Shown in pieces: positions 2,905 to 12,050 of a DNA stretch of 64,000 nt (within the stretch, counting starts at the first letter, position 1; each line of letters begins with the position of its first letter). The notes beneath the pieces are model-generated. The model was not told where the DNA came from. It was given only the letters and a program-made list of their open reading frames with translations, and searched no databases. Source of the DNA: Rhodothermales bacterium (GTDB lineage Bacteria > Bacteroidota > Rhodothermia > Rhodothermales > Bin80); the NCBI GenBank assembly GCA_963663495.1, contig OY760427.1:5586170-5650169 (forward strand), read 5' to 3'. The translations under genes were made by a program, and so were the position numbers.

Positions 2905-3534
2905 ATATCCGGTGAAGTACATATTAGCGATGGCATTTACTCTCTCAATTAGAGTAGGTTAGACCGCGGTCCGAAGGTCAATAGGCTGGCGTCGGTTGGA
3001 TGTGTAGGAGTCATAGTACCTAGCAGCGTGTTCGCAGACCCGTACACGGATCTATCTGATGCCCCGGGGCGCCTGTTTAGGGATTTCTATGCCGCTTTCT
3101 TAGCGATAGCTTGCTGCGACTCCTGCTAGGCTTTCCAATGATGAGGCAAGAGTTTAGCCATGTGGCCGGCAGGACATGTCGGAAGACTGCGTAGTACATC
3201 GCTAAGCCATTCAATTGGGTTTACCTCCTGCAGCTTGCATGGCGAGAAGTGCGTACGGCACGGCGGGCGCTGCCGCATGCGACCCCACAAACAGATGATT
3301 CTTCCGGCCCAGTGCTGTCGTACTTCCACGACGATGCACTTCAAACCCGCAGAGCCGCCTTCCGGCTCAAGGCGGATCACCTCTCTGGGCAGATTATCTG
3401 GAATCGGCTCGCGCACCGGCTTCTTCTTCCCAGGCCGCTCGCACTTTACCAAAATAAACTCGTCCTGGTCCTCCTCTGGCTCAACAGCTACCGGTTCCTC
3501 TTCAAACAAGCCAGCCTTGCAGCGCATTGTCCGC
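2905..3534 (-). mobile_element. Internally deleted IS66 remnant (right end plus pieces of tnpC)
   Basis: Degenerate right end ATATCCGGTGAAGTACAT. The C-terminal ...LLPHHWKA region is joined directly to the N-terminal PIPDNLPREVIRLEP region. Confidence 0.85.
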
Positions 3535-4384
3535 CGGCCGTACTCTCAGCGGGAGGATCCTCAGAAGCGGAAAGCCCCTCAAGGATTTTGTCAATGGTGC
3601 GCTTCGCATCGCTGATTTGAACGTGGAGCAACTCAAGTTGCTGGACAGTAACATTAATGCGGTCTGTGGAGGCCTCTACGACCCCCGGGGCAACGGTTAC
3701 GGGCTTGGATCGCAGTATATCCAGAACATCCTCAGCTTTGAAACGCCGTATGCGGTGTTTCTTCAACAACTTGGCTATCGTAGCGTGGCGAACCCGTCGG
3801 GCACGCTCTGGTGTGGAGGCAAGCTTCCAGAGTTCTAGCACCCATGGGGCTGCAAGGTTAACCTTGAGCTTGAGGAACTGCGGGTAGTAGCGCCATAGTT
3901 GCTCCCGCAAACGGTTGGTGCGACTCGTACGTTGGGCCGTAAGCTCGTCGGACATACGTGACCACTCACGCAACCGTACAATCTCGGCATCAAGCGCATC
4001 AAGCGCACGCAGACTATTCGGATCGGTTCGGATGGCGTCCGCCAGTACACGCGCATCTCGGCGGTCATCTTTTGCACCGGCCGGTGAAAACCGATCCCGG
4101 AAGCGATCCAGTTGCTTGGGGTTGATAGAATAGACCTGAAGCCCCCGATCAAACAGACTGTCTACCACGGGGCCGTGAGGAACCTCAATGGCTGCTGCGA
4201 TACACCCCGCATCGCAGCCTGCTATGGCAATGATCCAGTCGAGCAGCTGGCCAAGCCCCTCCCCCGAGTGAGGAAAGGCTCTCTCGCCAAGGACGGTACC
4301 GTCCTTGGCAAGCACGCAGGCTTGGTGGGACTCGGAGCCCCAGTCAATGCCTGCGAAGATGAAAGGTGAAGGGATTGTGGGCAT
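3535..4384 (-). pseudogene. IS110-family recombinase, C-terminally truncated
   Basis: ATG at 4384. DEDD RuvC-like motifs FAGIDWG, AIEVPHG and KDDRRDARVLA. The C-terminal Tnp domain is replaced by IS66 sequence at about 3535. Confidence 0.9.
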
Positions 4385-4388
4385 AGTT

Positions 4389-6311
4389 AGTGTTTGCCAG
4401 AAAAAGGTAGGAGGGCTGAAAAACGGCGAAACAAGGCCGTTTGATACTCGTTCTATCCACCTGTAAGCGTTACGGTTACAGATGGATATGAGCCATACCG
4501 TATTTGCACATTGCAGATTATTCAGCCAGCGTGTCTCTAACGAATGTTTGGCCAAATCCTTCTGTTTCGGGCGTTTTCATCGATATAAGGCCCCTTGGGG
4601 CCGATTATTCATACGATTAATACCATGCGGATTGTAGAGGATACACAGTTTAAGCTCGGGCAGGTCCCCATTGAAGAGATGACCTTCCACCCCAAAGACC
4701 GGGACGATATACCGGCAGTGCTAAAAGGTCTGCAGCACCTGTATTGCGACCCAACGGCTCGGCAGAAGATCTTTGAGATCCTGGAGACGCAGTTGCTTCC
4801 GAATATTGATTTGCAGCGTGGTCGTCCGGGGATGGCACTTTGGCGCGTCTTTGTCTTGGGGGTATTGAAGCAGGCCCTCAACTGCGACTTTGATCGTTTG
4901 AGGAGCCTGGCCGCCAATCATTTGGAGGTGCGCCAGATGCTGGGGCATACGAATTTCTGGGACGAGCCTGTCTATCAGCTGCAGACCGTTATTGATAACG
5001 TGAGCCTGCTAACAGCGGACATCCTGAAGCAGATCAACGATGCGGTGGTGGCTTGCGGTCACCGATTGGTAGAACAGGAGCCAGAGGAGCCGCTTCTTGG
5101 CCGGGTTGATTCGGCGGTGGCCAAAGCGAATGTGGAGTGGCCTACGGATGTTCGTTTGTTGTGGGAATCGATGCGGTGCCTGATTCGGGAGTTGCATTGC
5201 GCATGTGAGGCGCACAGCCTTGCGGGCTGGCGCAAGGCTGTGTACTGGAGTCGTACCTTGAAGAAGGCCTTCAACCGGGTGCGTACGCACCGTCAGTGGC
5301 GTGATGAGTCGAAGGTGAGAAAGTATGTGAAGATGTGTCGTGTTCTGATTGAGCGTGCGGAGAGCAGTGTCAGCGTGTTGAAGGAGAAAGACGCGGATCT
5401 TGAGGAGGTGTTGCGGTACTTGGCAGATGCACAAAGGCAGATAGATCAAGTAGATAGGCGTCTATTGAAGGGGGAGGTGATTCCGCATGATGAGAAGGTA
5501 TTTTCGATACATGAGCCGCATACTCGTTGGATCACCAAGGGGAAGGCGGGGGTGATTGCGGAGTTGGGTCTGCCGGTATGCGTGCTGGAGGATCAGCATC
5601 AGTTGATATTGTGGCATCAGATACTGCACGAAGGGGTGGATTCGGATATGATTGTGGGGTTTATGAAGGAAGCGAAGGATCGGTATCCGGCGATCACATC
5701 GTGCAGCATGGATAAGGGGTACTCATCGGTAAAGAACCGTAAGGCGCTGGAGCCGGTGTTGGACACGGTGATCATGCCGAAGAGGGGTAAGTTGAGCAAA
5801 GCGGACAAGGAGAGGGAATCCGATCCGAAGTTTGTGGAGGGTCGTCGTCAGCATCCGGCAGTGGAGTCGGCGATCAACAATTTGAATCATCGGGGCCTGG
5901 GTTTGATACGGACCCGTGGCAAGGAAGGCTTTGTTCGAACGGTGGCGCTGGTAGTGGTAGCGGCGAATGTGCACCGTATCGGGCAGATAGTGAAGCGGAG
6001 CGAGGAGCGACGAAGGCGGTGCGAGCAGGCCCGCAAGCGCGCGGCGTAGGTACTCGCGCGAGCGTCTTCAGCACAGAATCAAGGTAGCCTGCAAGGGCGA
6101 GAGGTCAACGTATGTTCATGCCTCGCTGATGGACGACAAAAACACGTCTGATCAACGTCAAAACCCTAGGATTGCCGGCGTGAGCGGACAAAGTCGGCAC
6201 CGTTACCGTCGAAAAATCCTTGCTGACTTGTCATTCCGATCCCCAATTCGAATTCCAGCCCCCCACTCAGCCAAGAGTCGCTCGCAAGACCATACTTTTC
6301 TGGCAAACACT
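4389..6311 (+). mobile_element. ISNCY-type insertion sequence, complete
   Basis: Perfect 16-bp TIR AGTGTTTGCCAGAAAA at 4389-4404 and 6296-6311. 4-bp duplication AGTT at 4385-4388 and 6312-6315. Confidence 0.9.
4625..6049 (+). CDS. DDE transposase (ISNCY/IS5-like)
   Basis: Intact ORF with GRPGMALWRVFVLG N-terminal block and acidic motifs RVDSAV, SMDKGY and VESAINNL. Family assignment by recall. Confidence 0.85.
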   Translation: MRIVEDTQFKLGQVPIEEMTFHPKDRDDIPAVLKGLQHLYCDPTARQKIFEILETQLLPNIDLQRGRPGMALWRVFVLGVLKQALNCDFDRLRSLAANHLEVRQMLGHTNFWDEPVYQLQTVIDNVSLLTADILKQINDAVVACGHRLVEQEPEEPLLGRVDSAVAKANVEWPTDVRLLWESMRCLIRELHCACEAHSLAGWRKAVYWSRTLKKAFNRVRTHRQWRDESKVRKYVKMCRVLIERAESSVSVLKEKDADLEEVLRYLADAQRQIDQVDRRLLKGEVIPHDEKVFSIHEPHTRWITKGKAGVIAELGLPVCVLEDQHQLILWHQILHEGVDSDMIVGFMKEAKDRYPAITSCSMDKGYSSVKNRKALEPVLDTVIMPKRGKLSKADKERESDPKFVEGRRQHPAVESAINNLNHRGLGLIRTRGKEGFVRTVALVVVAANVHRIGQIVKRSEERRRRCEQARKRAA

Positions 6312-6583
6312 AGTTATGCTATTTTGTGAAGAACGACAGTATCCGTACGGTGAAGTACATGGTAAAGCGGGCTTAGCATTGGTCTGCGTAGTCCGCTTGT
6401 AGAGCTTAGTGCAAGGTGATTATACGCCGGGTTTGGTGTGCCGACTTGGGAATTTCGGAGTGGTGTGCAGCTTATCGTCTTGGCGCCTGAATGCAGGCAG
6501 CAATCAGCGTCTTTGGGGACAAAAAACATGGGTTTTGGGGAGAAGAACCGGAACATTGTGGCGGACGCACATGTACACGAACT

Positions 6584-8221
6584 ATGCGGCCCAAGGTATC
6601 TTTCTCCCCCTCTTCTCCTGCCGGTGAAGCCCTTTTTCAGAGGCTAAGAAACCAAGAGGCTGAGAACAAGGATCTGCGAAAGCAGGTCCGTCGCTTGGAG
6701 AAAAAAGCCGATCGTCTATCCAAGAACATCGCGGATATGGCTGCGAAGATTAGCCATCTGGAAGACAGGTTGGAACAAGCGCATCGCCTACTCTCTGGCA
6801 AAAAGAGTGAGCGTTACACGCCGGCGGACAATGCGCAGCAAGGCCAGTTGTCTGGAGAGGAACCAGAAGCTGTTGAGCCCGAGGAGGAGGAGGAGGAGTA
6901 TGTCCCGGTAAAGCGCAAGCGGCGTGGGAAGAACAAGCCGGTGCGTGGGCCGATTCCGGACCATCTGCCCAGAGAGGTGATCCGCCTTGAGCCGGAGGGC
7001 AGCACCGCGGGTATGAAGTACATCGGCGAGGAAGTAACGGAGTACCTGGAATATGTGCCGGGCTTCACGAGGGTAGTACGGATTGTGCGGCCGAAGTACG
7101 TTGTCTGCAAGGAGCCTCGCAAGGGGGTGGTCATAGCGCCGTTGCCGAAGCGTGTCATACCGAAGGGGAAGGCGGGTCCGGGGTTGTTGGCGTATTTGGC
7201 GGTAGCCAAATACGTGGATCATATGCCGCTATACCGGCTGCGGAAGAAGTTTCAGCGCCATGGCGTGAAGCTATCGGCTGCTACAATGGGGGATTGGATT
7301 GCGAAGGTAGCGACGTATCTGGGTCCGTTAGGAGATGCGTTGCGTAAGGAGGTGCTTCGTAGCGGGTATCTGCAGGTGGATGAGACAACGTTCCCGGTGC
7401 AAAAGCCGAAGAAGGAAGGGAAGGAGAAGAAAGGGAAGAAAAACGAAGGAAAGACGCATCGCGGCTATCTTTGGGTATACCTGGCACCGCGGGCGAAGGT
7501 GGTGATGATGGATTACAGCCCGAGCCGTGCGCGCGCTGGACCGTGGGAATTCTTGCGCGGATATAGAGGGGCGATGCAAACCGACGGGTATGTGGTGTAC
7601 GATGCGTTTGGTACGCGGGGCGGGATAACGCTGTTTGGATGTATGGCGCATGCGCGTCGCAAGTTTTATGACTGCAGGAAAAAGGAGCCCAAGAAGGTGC
7701 GCCATGTAATGGAGGAAATCCGGCAGTTGTATGCGATAGAGCGTGGGTTGCGTAAGGAGGGAGCTGGTCCGGCTCGGCGTGTGGAGGTACGACAGGAGGA
7801 GGCACGGCCGGTACTGGAGAAGTTGAAGCCATGGCTTGAGGAGAGTCGTGAGCACCGGCCGAGTGCGGGATGGGATGAAGCCGTGGGGTACATGCTCAAC
7901 AGGTGGGAGAAGCTGGTTTGTTACCTGGAAGACGGCAAGGTTGAGATTGATAACAATCTGGTCGAGAACCAGATGCGAGCGATTGCGCTTGGTCGAAAAA
8001 ACCATCTGTTTGCGGGATCGCATGCGGCAGCGCAGCGGTCCGCAGTACTGTACTCTCTTTTTGCCACATGCAAGTTGCAATCGACAAACCCGATTGAATG
8101 GCTTACCGACGTACTACGCCGTCTTCCGACACATCCTGCCGACCGCATGGCTGAACTCTTGCCCCATCATTGGAAAGCTAGTCGGGACTTGCAGCAAGCT
8201 ACCGTCAAGAAAGCGGCATAG
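6584..8221 (+). CDS. tnpC: IS66 transposase TnpC
   Basis: Leucine zipper followed by GKKSER; LQVDETT, QTDGY, GCMAHARRKF, IDNNLVENQMR and ATCKL motifs. ORF is open from 6491; ATG 6584 is the likely start. Confidence 0.93.
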   Translation: MRPKVSFSPSSPAGEALFQRLRNQEAENKDLRKQVRRLEKKADRLSKNIADMAAKISHLEDRLEQAHRLLSGKKSERYTPADNAQQGQLSGEEPEAVEPEEEEEEYVPVKRKRRGKNKPVRGPIPDHLPREVIRLEPEGSTAGMKYIGEEVTEYLEYVPGFTRVVRIVRPKYVVCKEPRKGVVIAPLPKRVIPKGKAGPGLLAYLAVAKYVDHMPLYRLRKKFQRHGVKLSAATMGDWIAKVATYLGPLGDALRKEVLRSGYLQVDETTFPVQKPKKEGKEKKGKKNEGKTHRGYLWVYLAPRAKVVMMDYSPSRARAGPWEFLRGYRGAMQTDGYVVYDAFGTRGGITLFGCMAHARRKFYDCRKKEPKKVRHVMEEIRQLYAIERGLRKEGAGPARRVEVRQEEARPVLEKLKPWLEESREHRPSAGWDEAVGYMLNRWEKLVCYLEDGKVEIDNNLVENQMRAIALGRKNHLFAGSHAAAQRSAVLYSLFATCKLQSTNPIEWLTDVLRRLPTHPADRMAELLPHHWKASRDLQQATVKKAA

Positions 8222-8360
8222 GAGCCCCTAAACAGGCGCGCCCGGGTCATCCGACTAGATCCGTGTACGGGTCTGCGAGTACGCTGTTAGGTACTTAACT
8301 CCTGCACACCCAACCGACGCTAGCCTATAAACCTTCGAACCGCGCCCTAACTTACTCTAA

Positions 8361-8389
8361 TTGAGAGAGTAAATACCCTCGGTTATAAT
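8361..8389 (+). promoter_or_regulatory. Outward-facing sigma70-consensus promoter in the IS66 right end
   Basis: TTGAGA-N17-TATAAT. The -35 lies inside the inverted repeat TTACTCT-N7-AGAGTAA. Identical copies at 17684-17712 (minus) and 63408-63436. Confidence 0.55.
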
Positions 8390-8417
8390 GTACTTCACCG
8401 GACGGATACGAACGACA

Positions 8418-8587
8418 TGTGATTACGAGTCATTGCGACACTCCACCTGTCCCTGTATCGGTGCTCTACGGCACAAACTCCCTACGGGGGGTATAATCGC
8501 AGTATTCACCCGGGGCACTGATCCCCCCCAGGCATTCAAGATGCAGGGGGCAGTTGGTTGCTCCCGGGCAAAAGACTCGCGGTAGCC
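8418..8587 (-). ncRNA. Candidate IS110 non-coding (bridge-like) RNA segment
   Basis: Lies directly upstream of the IS110 ATG once the inserted ISs are removed. Contains two adjacent imperfect hairpins with internal loops (about 8435-8501 and 8509-8568). Confidence 0.35.
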
Positions 8588-8630
8588 CTGCCCTGTACCC
8601 ATAAATCATCCATTACGGTTCGATTGTTCG

Positions 8631-8956
8631 TCAGGTATGGTCAACTCTCGCTGGCATGGCTGTCGGAATATCTCGGGTATTTCGGCCTAACAGGTATGGT
8701 GTGTGACTTGAGGTGAATAATGCCATCCTCTCGTGCGGATACGCGATCTCTTCCTGCGCCGCTTCCCTTGGCGCTGCATTGCCTACATCCACGAACCCTC
8801 GGCTGCAGTCTCCTGGCGATACTTCTGCCTCCAGTAATTCAACGGTCCGTACGAGATGCCCTGCTCTGCGCAAGACGCCGCTGCGGACCGGGTCCTTTCG
8901 TTATACTGCTCTACCAGCGGAAACATCTCTTCCGCCGTACGTCTGGGCTGTACCAG
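8631..8956 (-). pseudogene. Frameshifted IS66 TnpA-like accessory gene carried inside the IS4 element
   Basis: EEMFPLVEQY...QGISYGPLNYWRQKYRQ, then after a frameshift GFVDV...EIAYP, resembling IS66 TnpA. Start is CTG here and ATG in the copy near 62997. Confidence 0.6.
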
Positions 8957-9099
8957 GCGGACGGTCCGGGGTCTGGGTTCTCACGTCTACGGGTAAGCTC
9001 TACAGAACCCGTCACCTAATCAAGATGCAAGTTCACCGCACGCTCACGCAGGTGTAGCCACTGGGACATAGGCCCACATCAGGCAGGTTGATATGCCAT

Positions 9100-11421
9100 T
9101 TATATGAACCCAGATGAATTCCCGTGCGAACATGCACTCAATTGTTCGTCTCTTACCTCGTATCCCAATTCGTATCCCAATGTCATTAGGTGTAACCTCT
9201 CTAGGCCACGCCACATGATCTGGTAACCCACCGGTCCATCACGAGTGCGGTTCTGATAACCGCCGAGCACCGCTACGATCAGGATAGCAGCTCCCAAAGT
9301 ACTGGGCTTCGGCAGCTTTACCCGTGCTGCATATCCATCCAAGAATCGCAGCTCCATCTCCGTGAAAAAGACATCCGCGTCCAGCTCCGGCACCTCCCGA
9401 CCCAATTGCACCAAGGTCATGACGCGCCAGGATATCACACAATACATCGTTATTGCTCGCTGCAGACGCAACGAGGTACGCAGACCCAAACGCTCTACCT
9501 TGCACCCGCTCTTGAGCACGCGGAAGAAGTCTTCCACCCGCCACCGCTTGAGATACATTGCCAACACCCGCCGTGCATCCGCTACGCTCCCTACCTCCAT
9601 GCTGGTCAATAGCATCCACTCCACCGGCGGCGCATCCCCCGGAGGCTCCACCTCCAACACATGCACCCCGTACATCACCACCGGCTCCTCCTCGTTCTTC
9701 GGATCCGGCAACAAGAACCTCCCGTAGCGTACCTCCGCATTGACCATCCGGTAACTGCGACCCTTCCGTGCCTGCTTGCGCGCCTGCTTCTTGCGCGCCG
9801 TCACCCGCTGTATCTCTATCTCCACATTCCCCGGAGCCTTACCACTGCGCATTACCGCAAACAGCTTGCGATCATCCAACAGCTTGCGATCATGCTTCGC
9901 TCGTATCAATACCTCCGCCTTACCCTGTCTGCGCTGCTCGGCAAACATAGCAAAGCTGTCCGCCTCCCGGTCCGCAACACAGATCACCTGCGTCTCGCCG
10001 GACAGCTCCTCCGCCGCCTCGCATATATCCTTGAACCCGTCTATCCACTGCTGCGTCCGCGGAGCATGCGGACCCTCCTCCGGATCCTTGAAGCTGCCAC
10101 GCAACACCCCCAACGTCAATCCATCCTCCGTCACCACCAGCGTCGCATGCAACGGCAACCCCAGCGTCTTCGCCGTCGTCTGATTACTCCCTATTACCTC
10201 CAAATCCGTACACGCCGGCCGCGTACTGTACCGCAACTTCGTCGTGTCCTGGATGCATAACACGGTCTCCTGACTACGCATGCGCTCTATCGTACGCCCA
10301 CGATGCGGCGCCAATATGTTCTCCGGCGTTACCGTTTTGTCCTTCTTGCTCTCCAATAACCGGTAATGCCCCTTCACCGCCGCGCGGTCCGCATCCGTAT
10401 GCGCGGTAATGCTGTGGCCTATCACATCGGCCAACATGGACGTACTCTTTACCAGTCGCACAGACAACCGCCTGTCTCCCAATGGCGCTCCGCCAAACTC
10501 CGTTTCGGCCCACTGCGCACTGTCAATCCCCTCGTGCGGATCCCTCACCGGACGCAACTCCTCCTCCGGTTCCCCCAAGGTCCCGCGCCATTCTTTGTCC
10601 AACTCGTATACATACAGCCCCTTGGGATCCTCTTCCTTTGCCTCCTTGTGCCGCTTTCCGCCTGCGGTATGGCCGATCAATACAAAATTGTTCACCTCAA
10701 AACACGCTCCTTCCCCTTGGGGATCCACATACGTTTCGACAACCCAGGGACGGTAACAGTACCGTGCCTGAAAATCATCCGCCAACCGTCTCAATACCTT
10801 ACCCAGTACATGGCTGGCCAAATCCTGACACTGCCCCCGTATCAGAAAACGACTCAAACACACCACACGGTGCAAATGCGCCTTGCGCTGCTCATCACTC
10901 CACGCCATCCAGTGCTCTCTGGGCGCCAGGCACAACGCCGCCGCCGAAAATCCCACCGCTCCCAGGTAACCATGGGCACTGCCTATCAGATAGCGTACCT
11001 GCGCTCCCACAAATGTGGTCGTACGCCTCGGATGCTCAAAGTGCAGCAACGTGTTCCACACCATACGCTGCTCGTCCGTCTCAACCAACTCAATCGTCAA
11101 CCCCCGGACACCGTGTACCGTGCCCGGTAACGCTATCGGATCCGGTACCCGCTCCTCGCGCCTACGCGGTTCCGCCTTAGCCGCATTACAATTCTCGGGC
11201 TTGGGCAACACAATCCTCCCCCGGGCCTCCAACTTCGATAAAGCCTGCGCACAGTTGCTCACCTGCGGTTCGCCCCGTGCATCAACAAACCCGAACTCTT
11301 CACAGACAGCGCGCGCTATCTGCGTGCGAAACCGCCAACGATCGTCGGCAAGAACCCTGTCCAAACGCTCTCCATTGCAGGGAGCGGTGAGCGTTCGTAA
11401 GACCTGACTTCGCTGAAGCAT
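9100..11421 (-). CDS. DUF4338 (DruA-like) domain fused to an IS4/Tn5-type transposase
   Basis: N-terminal VGAQVRYLI/HRVVCLSRFLI/PWVVETYVD block. C-terminal WAETEFGGAPLGDRRL, LCIQDTT, VADREAD and YLKRWRVEDFFRVLKSG (Y-R-E-K). Confidence 0.88.
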   Translation of the reverse strand: MLQRSQVLRTLTAPCNGERLDRVLADDRWRFRTQIARAVCEEFGFVDARGEPQVSNCAQALSKLEARGRIVLPKPENCNAAKAEPRRREERVPDPIALPGTVHGVRGLTIELVETDEQRMVWNTLLHFEHPRRTTTFVGAQVRYLIGSAHGYLGAVGFSAAALCLAPREHWMAWSDEQRKAHLHRVVCLSRFLIRGQCQDLASHVLGKVLRRLADDFQARYCYRPWVVETYVDPQGEGACFEVNNFVLIGHTAGGKRHKEAKEEDPKGLYVYELDKEWRGTLGEPEEELRPVRDPHEGIDSAQWAETEFGGAPLGDRRLSVRLVKSTSMLADVIGHSITAHTDADRAAVKGHYRLLESKKDKTVTPENILAPHRGRTIERMRSQETVLCIQDTTKLRYSTRPACTDLEVIGSNQTTAKTLGLPLHATLVVTEDGLTLGVLRGSFKDPEEGPHAPRTQQWIDGFKDICEAAEELSGETQVICVADREADSFAMFAEQRRQGKAEVLIRAKHDRKLLDDRKLFAVMRSGKAPGNVEIEIQRVTARKKQARKQARKGRSYRMVNAEVRYGRFLLPDPKNEEEPVVMYGVHVLEVEPPGDAPPVEWMLLTSMEVGSVADARRVLAMYLKRWRVEDFFRVLKSGCKVERLGLRTSLRLQRAITMYCVISWRVMTLVQLGREVPELDADVFFTEMELRFLDGYAARVKLPKPSTLGAAILIVAVLGGYQNRTRDGPVGYQIMWRGLERLHLMTLGYELGYEVRDEQLSACSHGNSSGFI

Positions 11422-11699
11422 GCCACAACATAAAAAACAAGTAGCAAAATGTCAAATACATGAAGTGGTAGGATGGCAGTGGAAGCGGCGCAGGAAGAGA
11501 TCGCGTATCCGCACGAGAGGACGGCATTATTCACCTCAAGTCACACACCATACCTGTCAGGTCGAAATACCCGAGATATTCCGACAGCCATGCCAGCGAG
11601 AGTTGACCAGAACTGACGAACAATCGAACCGTGTTGGATGATTTATGGGGGAAGGGCAGCGGTAGCCACACAAAATAGAGACACTCGGCGACCTTAAAC

Positions 11700-11729
11700 A
11701 TGATGTGGGGCTGGCCAGCCCCACATCAT
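11700..11729. repeat. Perfect 30-bp palindrome
   Basis: ATGATGTGGGGCTGG|CCAGCCCCACATCAT. Confidence 0.9.
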
Positions 11730-11788
11730 TAATCCCCCTGACATCTCACCCTATATCGCTACTCCTGAAAGATACAGGGGGGAGTTAA

Positions 11789-12050
11789 ATGCCTTGGGCT
11801 GCATGATTCATGTGCCTGTCCGCCCTCCACACTGCTCCGATTCTCCTACCCCAACATCCATGGATTTTGTCCCCAAAGGCGCAGGTTACTGACTGCATTC
11901 GGCCGCCCGGAAGATAGGCTGCACATCACTCCGCCATTCCCAGATCGGCACCCCAAACGCGGAGTATGATCACCTTGCACTAAACTCCACAAGCAGACTA
12001 CGCAGACCAACCCCAAGCCTGCCCTACCATGTACTTCACCGGACGCATAC
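11789..12050 (-). mobile_element. IS66 left-end fragment (diverged variant)
   Basis: TIR ATGTACTTCACCGGACGCATAC ends at 12050. Body is similar to the reverse complement of 6339-6600. Confidence 0.85.

Follow-up and report, generated by a model that had tools for sequence, protein, structure and literature searches.

Three insertion sequences (ISs) of the ISNCY, IS66 and IS4 families interrupt the 312-bp left end of an IS110-family element in the stretch of DNA analysed here (64,000 nucleotides of a Rhodothermales bacterium, assembly GCA_963663495.1, contig OY760427.1, which is C1:5586170-5650169 within the genome; hereafter the window). This left end is, with high confidence, a bridge RNA locus of the IS110 group, and positions 3537-11782 of the window are one dead copy of the element. 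The conclusion was reached from what is directly observed, namely the anatomy of the left end, the covariation of its RNA helices, and the matches of its guide sequences to DNA together with the covariation between the two. A sequence-only reading of the window had already pointed to such a locus, and had claimed that removal of the three ISs joins four pieces into one region directly upstream of the IS110 ATG. The sequence ending at 4388 was therefore joined to 6316-6338, 8418-8587 and 11668 onward, and the product was used as the query of a genome search. The 1160 bp reassembled in this way (the 312-bp left end plus the start of the open reading frame, ORF) aligned without gaps to five other genomic copies of the element, at 96.3-98.6% identity and seamlessly at the three joints. 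Because the excised sequence runs unbroken in these five copies, upstream of the ORF as in the window, the continuity of the left end was restored by the excision, as had been proposed.

The guide module of the bridge RNA was located at 8426-8579 on the minus strand (154 nt), using the covariation of its helices and a covariance model (R1); these are left-end positions 124-277. It is closed by a helix in which CGAGUC (8574-8579) pairs with GACUCG (8426-8431), and consists of a first, target-binding stem-loop (8508-8569, minus strand), closed by CCCGGG/CCCGGG, and a second, donor-binding stem-loop (8434-8502, minus strand), closed by TGCGA/TCGCA. Model R1 matched the window at 8416-8579 (minus strand) over its full length (model positions 1-162), with 157.1 bits and an E value of 9.5e-32. 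This is the score obtained in the intact copies, and the module is identical to those of two other copies (L003 and L004). When folded as a single sequence it gave -67.3 kcal/mol (z score, -2.7). A long hairpin precedes the module on its 5' side, at left-end positions 21-121 (-57.1 kcal/mol; z score, -4.5), and its tip is a perfect 30-bp palindrome located at 11700-11729 (left-end positions 54-83), 230 bp upstream of the ATG at 4384. Both the two hairpins with their closing sequences and the palindrome about 230 bp from the ATG had been described in the sequence-only reading, and all of them were found in place. Most relatives also have a hairpin 5' of the module. Among families, 45-193 nt separate the module from the left-end terminus and, therefore, the palindrome itself is not a conserved part.

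A protein-based search provided 80 loci with relatives of the recombinase (55-71% identity), and these relatives came from Rhodothermales, Bryobacterales, Alphaproteobacteria, Vicinamibacterales, Gemmatimonadota and others. With the left end as nhmmer query, positions ~136-258, which coincide exactly with the two hairpins, were the only non-coding part conserved in distant relatives, down to 55% protein identity; the right end was almost unconserved. Since there was no Rfam match to start from, the RNA model was built from scratch, through the alignment of 37 distinct modules and the construction of the covariance model from this alignment. RNAalifold predicted 38 pairs in the alignment, 20 of them compensatory. 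The five helices of the module (the common closing helix, two basal and two apical ones) were paired in 95.6% of the cells, and 19 of the 31 pairs change on both sides, whereas slid controls reached at most 52.9% of paired cells. One additional helix proposed by RNAalifold between the two donor guides (columns 94-100/126-132) was discarded; it shows no compensatory change, and its bases match the element ends instead. With regard to the side of the ORF on which the non-coding end lies (its presence on the 3' side had been named as an outcome that would contradict the sequence-only reading), 85 of the 86 loci searched had, according to the covariance model, the module immediately 5' of the ORF. 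The search of the own genome with the same model yielded seven modules.

The guides were assigned following the rules of IS621, in which left guides read like the DNA top strand, right guides read as its reverse complement and the four pairings share the core. On the donor-binding stem-loop (minus strand), the left donor guide GUAGGGAGU(UU) is found at 8475-8485, followed by the apical hairpin (8461-8474) and the right donor guide GAUACAGGG (8451-8459). The nine bases that close the right end are repeated, in the same sense, by the left donor guide GUAGGGAGU, whereas the left end opens with CCCTGTATC, of which the right donor guide is the reverse complement. Identity of the left donor guide with the right-end terminus was observed in 66 of 73 loci, which included three covarying classes (GTAGGGAGT, GTGGGGAGT and GTAGAGAGT), each of them with its own terminus. 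For the right donor guide, reverse complementarity to the left-end terminus was seen in 78 of 82 loci, and two classes were distinguished, AUACAGGG/CCCTGTAT and GUACAGGG/CCCTGTAC.

The target-binding stem-loop (minus strand) carries the left target guide AACUGCCCCC on its 5' side (8546-8555), the apical hairpin (8532-8545), the right target guide GGGGGGG on its 3' side (8523-8529) and a candidate handshake sequence AU (8521-8522). The right target guide comprises seven variable bases, and these match the seven host bases that lie 3' of the right end. Guide GGUGAGG was found with the flank CCTCACC in 14 of 14 loci and GGAAGGG with CCCTTCC in five of five, and GGAGAGG, GGGUGGG, GGGGCGG, GGGGAGG and AGGCGGG each match their own flank. 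Classes of right target guides other than poly-G matched their own flanks at a mean of 5.87 of 7 positions and the flanks of other classes at 4.38 of 7, and none of 10000 shuffles was as good. For the left target guide, matches of 7-9 nt to the left flank were observed in four families where the guide is not just a run of C (L083, L084, L068 and L070); in the remaining ones the match is limited to the G plus C-run next to the core. The covariation of loop sequences with target and donor sites, which had been suggested as a check of the proposed locus, is thus present, with guide classes that follow their DNA partners across families.

As read from these pairings, CC is the most likely core. 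The right target guide is followed by AU or AC, a dinucleotide at an invariant position that complements the final GT of the donor; by analogy with IS621, it possibly acts as the handshake guide. The CCUG that comes after the left target guide was considered as a mimic of the donor flank and was dropped, since its variants CCCG and CCAG occur without covariation with the constant CTG of the left end. The own element has the guides GGGGGGG and ACGCCCCC or CUGCCCCC, from which a target of one G and then about ten C is predicted. C-runs of 4-25 border all the own copies on both sides, and unoccupied sites consisting of G plus a C-run are also present in the genome. The junction between the right end and the left end in the circular form is predicted to read ..GGTAGGGAGT-CC-CTGTATC... 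A literature search on IS110 elements that target poly-C found nothing relevant, which is no proof of novelty.

Other C-runs were also seen in this genome. A repeated motif, TGACATTG-C(n)-GAACACAT, with C-runs of 9-24, occurs at C1: 561378, 1095234, 2800796, 4041146, 4149978 and 4587888. The C-runs of this motif are hypervariable and resemble good empty IS110 targets (TG plus a C-run). Other runs of G or C reach up to 28 in the genome.

Several observations weigh against the bridge RNA reading. The distal part of the left target guide is unmatched in the left flanks of the own copies and in those of a 14-copy alphaproteobacterial family, where only the G plus C-run fits, and in a few loci (L044 and L059) the target guides do not fit their own flanks. 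Lengths of C-runs are perhaps unreliable in long-read assemblies, and thus the core and register given here are provisional. No matching family was obtained when the three full copies were compared with Rfam 15 at E values up to 1. Finally, no convincing sigma-70 promoter was detected in the left end or across the modelled right-end/left-end junction, where TTGCAT (right end) and TATCTT (left end) would be separated by a spacing of 19 nt; the sigma-70 scan of a full copy gave only a 9/12 site in the right end (L001:2000-2028), and the consensus used may not be that of this organism. Regarding the two loci with unfitting guides, which belong to Rhodothermales metagenome-assembled genomes (OZ244626 and OZ253559), their flanks are of the type typical of a sister subfamily, and the mismatch suggests recombination between copies or a change of the guide after insertion.

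One important question is whether the two hairpins are DNA-level sites for the recombinase, or a regulatory structure of the 5' untranslated region, instead of a guide RNA, so that their similarity to the element ends would come from repeated protein-binding motifs. The donor-guide motifs do repeat the termini of the element itself, as subterminal binding sites would, and the hairpins have no counterpart in Rfam. However, the pairing of the helices is kept by compensatory and G-U changes, which argues for selection at the RNA level, and the 3' side of the first loop shows covariation with adjoining host sequence outside the element, for which repeats of a binding site cannot account. In addition, the architecture and the strand rules are the same as in IS621 (PMC11208160). 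A purely DNA-level or regulatory role of the hairpins is therefore considered highly improbable, and a guide RNA is the preferred explanation for the module.

According to this explanation, the left end would encode a bridge RNA made up of the long 5' hairpin and, after it, the 154-nt module with two stem-loops and a common closing helix. By analogy with IS621, this RNA would base-pair both to the circular element, at its CC-cored junction, and to a target formed by G and a long C-run, and the DEDD/Ser recombinase would then swap strands at the CC. We infer the transcription of the bridge RNA, its binding by the recombinase and the chemistry of strand exchange.

The full element is 1874 bp long, with an ORF of 436-440 amino acids, the 312-bp left end and a 235-bp right end. 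The recombinase of the full copies contains both PF01548 (122.5 bits) and PF02371 (48.9 bits), and passes the model NF033542, "IS110 family RNA-guided transposase", with 160.5 bits (cut-off, 140). In the alignment with IS621 (8wt6) the motifs GID, IE and D..DAR and the serine of SG are kept, and the D, E, D and D positions align. Seven copies or fragments of this IS110 element are present in the genome: three intact copies (L001, L002 and L003), one left-end fragment, the window copy and two interrupted copies, one of them with an insertion of ~3.9 kb in the right end and the other with ~5.7 kb in the ORF. The solo left-end fragment (L006, C1:2227069-2227435) has 92% identity and is still recognized by the RNA model (122 bits); it carries diverged guides, the left target guide being AACUGCCCUC, the right target guide GGCGGGG and the terminus CTCTGTATC. 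A run of 25 C was observed after the right end of copy L005 (C1:4617658), and TAGGGAGT plus C9 at C1:4555314 resembles an isolated right-end remnant.

In the window copy, the recombinase gene (3537-4384, minus strand) is truncated, with a PF01548 match of 125 bits and no PF02371. It retains 282 native codons, which encode only the RuvC-like DEDD domain; the frame then enters foreign DNA and reaches a stop at 3488. Homology to the full copies stops at position 1160 of the 1874 of the element, at about 3537 of the window, and the 3' 714 bp, with the catalytic Ser domain and the whole right end, are gone. This 3' truncation was absent from the description given in the sequence-only reading. Because the 714 bp deleted include the catalytic Ser domain, the window copy (3537-11782, minus strand) is, on the grounds of its sequence, dead. 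At this place the ORF of the element has been broken twice independently within a few bases, at position 1160 by the deletion in the window copy and, in L005 (C1:4611233), by an insertion whose duplication covers positions 1148-1156; the near coincidence of the two breaks may be fortuitous or may reflect the local preference of another IS.

The left end of the window copy is distributed, on the minus strand, over the pieces 6316-6338 (left-end positions 286-308), 8418-8587 (positions 116-285, with the whole guide module) and 11668-11782 (positions 1-115), in addition to the four bases next to the ATG. Homology to the other copies begins at 11782. The terminus of the element, a C-run plus CTGTATC, is located at 11771-11782, and the distal piece also contains most of the long 5' hairpin. 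The IS110 element lies in turn inside an older, diverged IS66-like copy, the right end of which was recognized at 11783-12050 by alignment to intact IS66-like copies. This host copy continues beyond the IS110 element at about 2908-3536, and 208 bp are missing there. It is old (roughly 82-85% diverged), and more than 100 related copies are present in the genome. As judged from the alignments, a single deletion probably took both the 3' part of the IS110 element and the 208 bp of its IS66-like host.

The three ISs inside the left end were delimited at 4389-6311 for ISNCY (plus strand, 1923 bp; transposase at 4595-6049, NF033593 with 419 bits), 6339-8409 for IS66 (plus strand, 2071 bp; ORF at 6491-8221, PF03050 with 300 bits) and 8588-11659 for IS4 (minus strand, 3072 bp; transposase at 9100-11421, NF033590 with 284 bits). 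Families were assigned by Pfam and NCBIfam scores well over the cut-offs. The IS4-family transposase has a DruA-like region (PF14236) at its N-terminus, and terminal inverted repeats are present in the three ISs alike. Clean duplications had been claimed for each of them, and both their positions and their perfection were confirmed. ISNCY is bordered by AGTT (4385-4388 and 6312-6315, the first copy being left-end positions 309-312, directly 5' of the ATG), IS66 by GAACGACA (6331-6338 and 8410-8417, left-end positions 286-293) and IS4 by CGGTAGCC (8580-8587 and 11660-11667, left-end positions 116-123). These duplications, of 4, 8 and 8 bp respectively, and the inverted repeats recur in other copies; full-length copies with the same end bases were found elsewhere in the genome (47 of ISNCY, 39 of IS66 and 29 of IS4), and among the copies with exact ends perfect duplications of the same length were present in 18 of 27, 23 of 39 and 18 of 28, respectively. 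The nested ISs are up to 100% identical to other genomic copies, and by this measure of sequence their insertions in the window are recent. Genome-wide, the 8-bp duplications of IS4 show a palindromic preference, GGCWWGCC (e.g. GGCAAGCC, GCCTAGCG and GGCTTGGC), with which the window site CGGTAGCC agrees. The 4-bp duplications of ISNCY fit ANNT, ATAT being the commonest, then ATCT, AGAT, AGGT and AGTT, and the latter is the window site. An outward promoter-like sequence, TTGAGA-17-TATAAT (11/12), was seen in the right end of IS66 (8361-8389, plus strand), facing the bridge RNA module in antisense.

The sequence-only reading regarded the locus as a split bridge RNA that had acted as an insertion hot spot. 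The first of these claims stood in part. The left end is indeed in four pieces, but both guide stem-loops and the closing helix are whole on the 170-bp piece 8418-8587, which gave the 157.1 bits mentioned above. IS4 is inserted immediately 5' of the closing helix, whose first base is left-end position 124, and directly after the long 5' hairpin, the IS66 duplication starts nine bases beyond the closing helix, and the ISNCY duplication abuts the ATG. Hence, IS4 merely parts the guide module from what lies upstream, namely the 5' hairpin and any promoter; if the long hairpin belongs to the mature RNA, IS4 split the transcript between the hairpin and the guides. It could be asked whether the orphan module (8426-8579) is still used, through read-through from IS4, as a bridge RNA acting in trans for the recombinase of the intact copies. 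In favour of this, the module is whole, with the same sequence as in L003 and L004, and the IS4 transposase gene located upstream is co-oriented with it, with no terminator-like site between them. Nevertheless, the minus strand around the end of IS4 yielded no promoter-like site, the only strong one (that at 8361-8389) reads the module in antisense, and the integrity of the module is expected by chance because the three flanking insertions are recent. Continued use of the module is thus very unlikely; if it were true, the orphan module would guide the recombinase of three intact copies to G plus poly-C, and a "dead" copy would still aid transposition.

The hot-spot claim was not upheld. It holds that the DNA of the left end, or of the bridge RNA locus, attracts ISs by its sequence or structure. 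One copy did receive three insertions within 190 bp, from left-end position 123 to 312, two of them closely flanking the structured module, and of the five IS insertions seen in the IS110 DNA of this genome the left end, with ~19% of that DNA, received three (binomial p ~0.05). These three insertions, however, are not independent; they share one copy, itself dead and embedded in a second dead IS. No insertion is present in the six other left ends of the same sequence, and the two remaining insertions are in the ORF and the right end. Around 20 other genomic spots with three high-copy blocks of at least 1 kb and gaps totalling at most 320 bp were counted, in a scan that is crude and misses the window locus itself because its IS66 block is split. 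The genome is in fact extremely rich in repeats (37% of its 25-mers are repeated, 28% occur at least five times and 20% at least 20 times), and 578 high-copy blocks of at least 1 kb occupy 1.29 Mb of 5.92 Mb. A true hot spot is thus unlikely. Given this repeat content, the other triple stacks, the unhit left ends and the agreement of the IS4 and ISNCY window sites with their own preferences, the stack of three ISs is best read as a neutral pile-up, ordinary in an IS-packed genome, and not a property of the bridge RNA locus.

The history of the locus may then be reconstructed as follows. The IS110 element would have entered a C-run of the old IS66-like copy. A deletion would have cost it the 3' 714 bp, with the Ser domain and the right end, and the host element 208 bp, and the young IS4, IS66 and ISNCY would have landed, each by its own site preference, in a left end that was now neutral. 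The sequence itself gives no order in time for the deletion and the three insertions.

Bridge RNAs of IS110 elements have been known since 2024, and another one is no discovery. The present clade (with members in Rhodothermales, Bryobacterales, Alphaproteobacteria, Vicinamibacterales and Gemmatimonadota) is distant from IS621, and provides a clean natural data set, with four guides, a CC core and more than ten variants of the target guides that match their own flanks. Its poly-C target and its compact, self-closed 154-nt module are of possible interest for the mining of bridge recombinases. The results also indicate that the in silico excision of nested ISs can restore features of the host element, and that the stacking of ISs in a genome with 37% of repeats needs no special cause.

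The locus can be compared with three known situations. As in other nested pile-ups, young ISs with clean duplications and near-identical copies elsewhere have inserted at no cost inside dead ISs, and nothing is special to the window locus except the chance sparing of the guide module. With the IS1111 group, in which the bridge RNA is in the right end and subterminal inverted repeats of 7-17 bp are present (PMC11208160), the element shares the recombinase family and the use of a bridge RNA. Membership of this group was considered and rejected; in 85 of the 86 loci searched the module belongs to the left end, the 235-bp right end is almost unconserved, and no long subterminal repeat was seen at the ends of the own IS110 copies. 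The comparison is closest with IS621 of Escherichia coli, a member of the IS110 group with a 177-nt bridge RNA (Durrant et al. 2024, PMC11208160; Hiraizumi et al. 2024, PMC11208158) that starts with a 5' stem-loop. The two proteins are distant (phmmer E value of 1.8e-08), with 436-440 amino acids here and 326 in IS621. The core is CC instead of CT, the natural target is a homopolymeric C-run, an extra common helix closes both guide stem-loops, and the left end is longer (312 bp, with a 100-nt 5' hairpin), encoding an RNA that matches neither Rfam nor a published model. In spite of these differences, the RNA lies in both cases in the left end, 5' of the gene for a DEDD and Ser recombinase; the first loop carries the target guides and the second the donor guides, with the same strand rules for left and right; a 2-nt core is found in all four pairings; and a handshake-like AU/AC is complementary to the GT of the donor.

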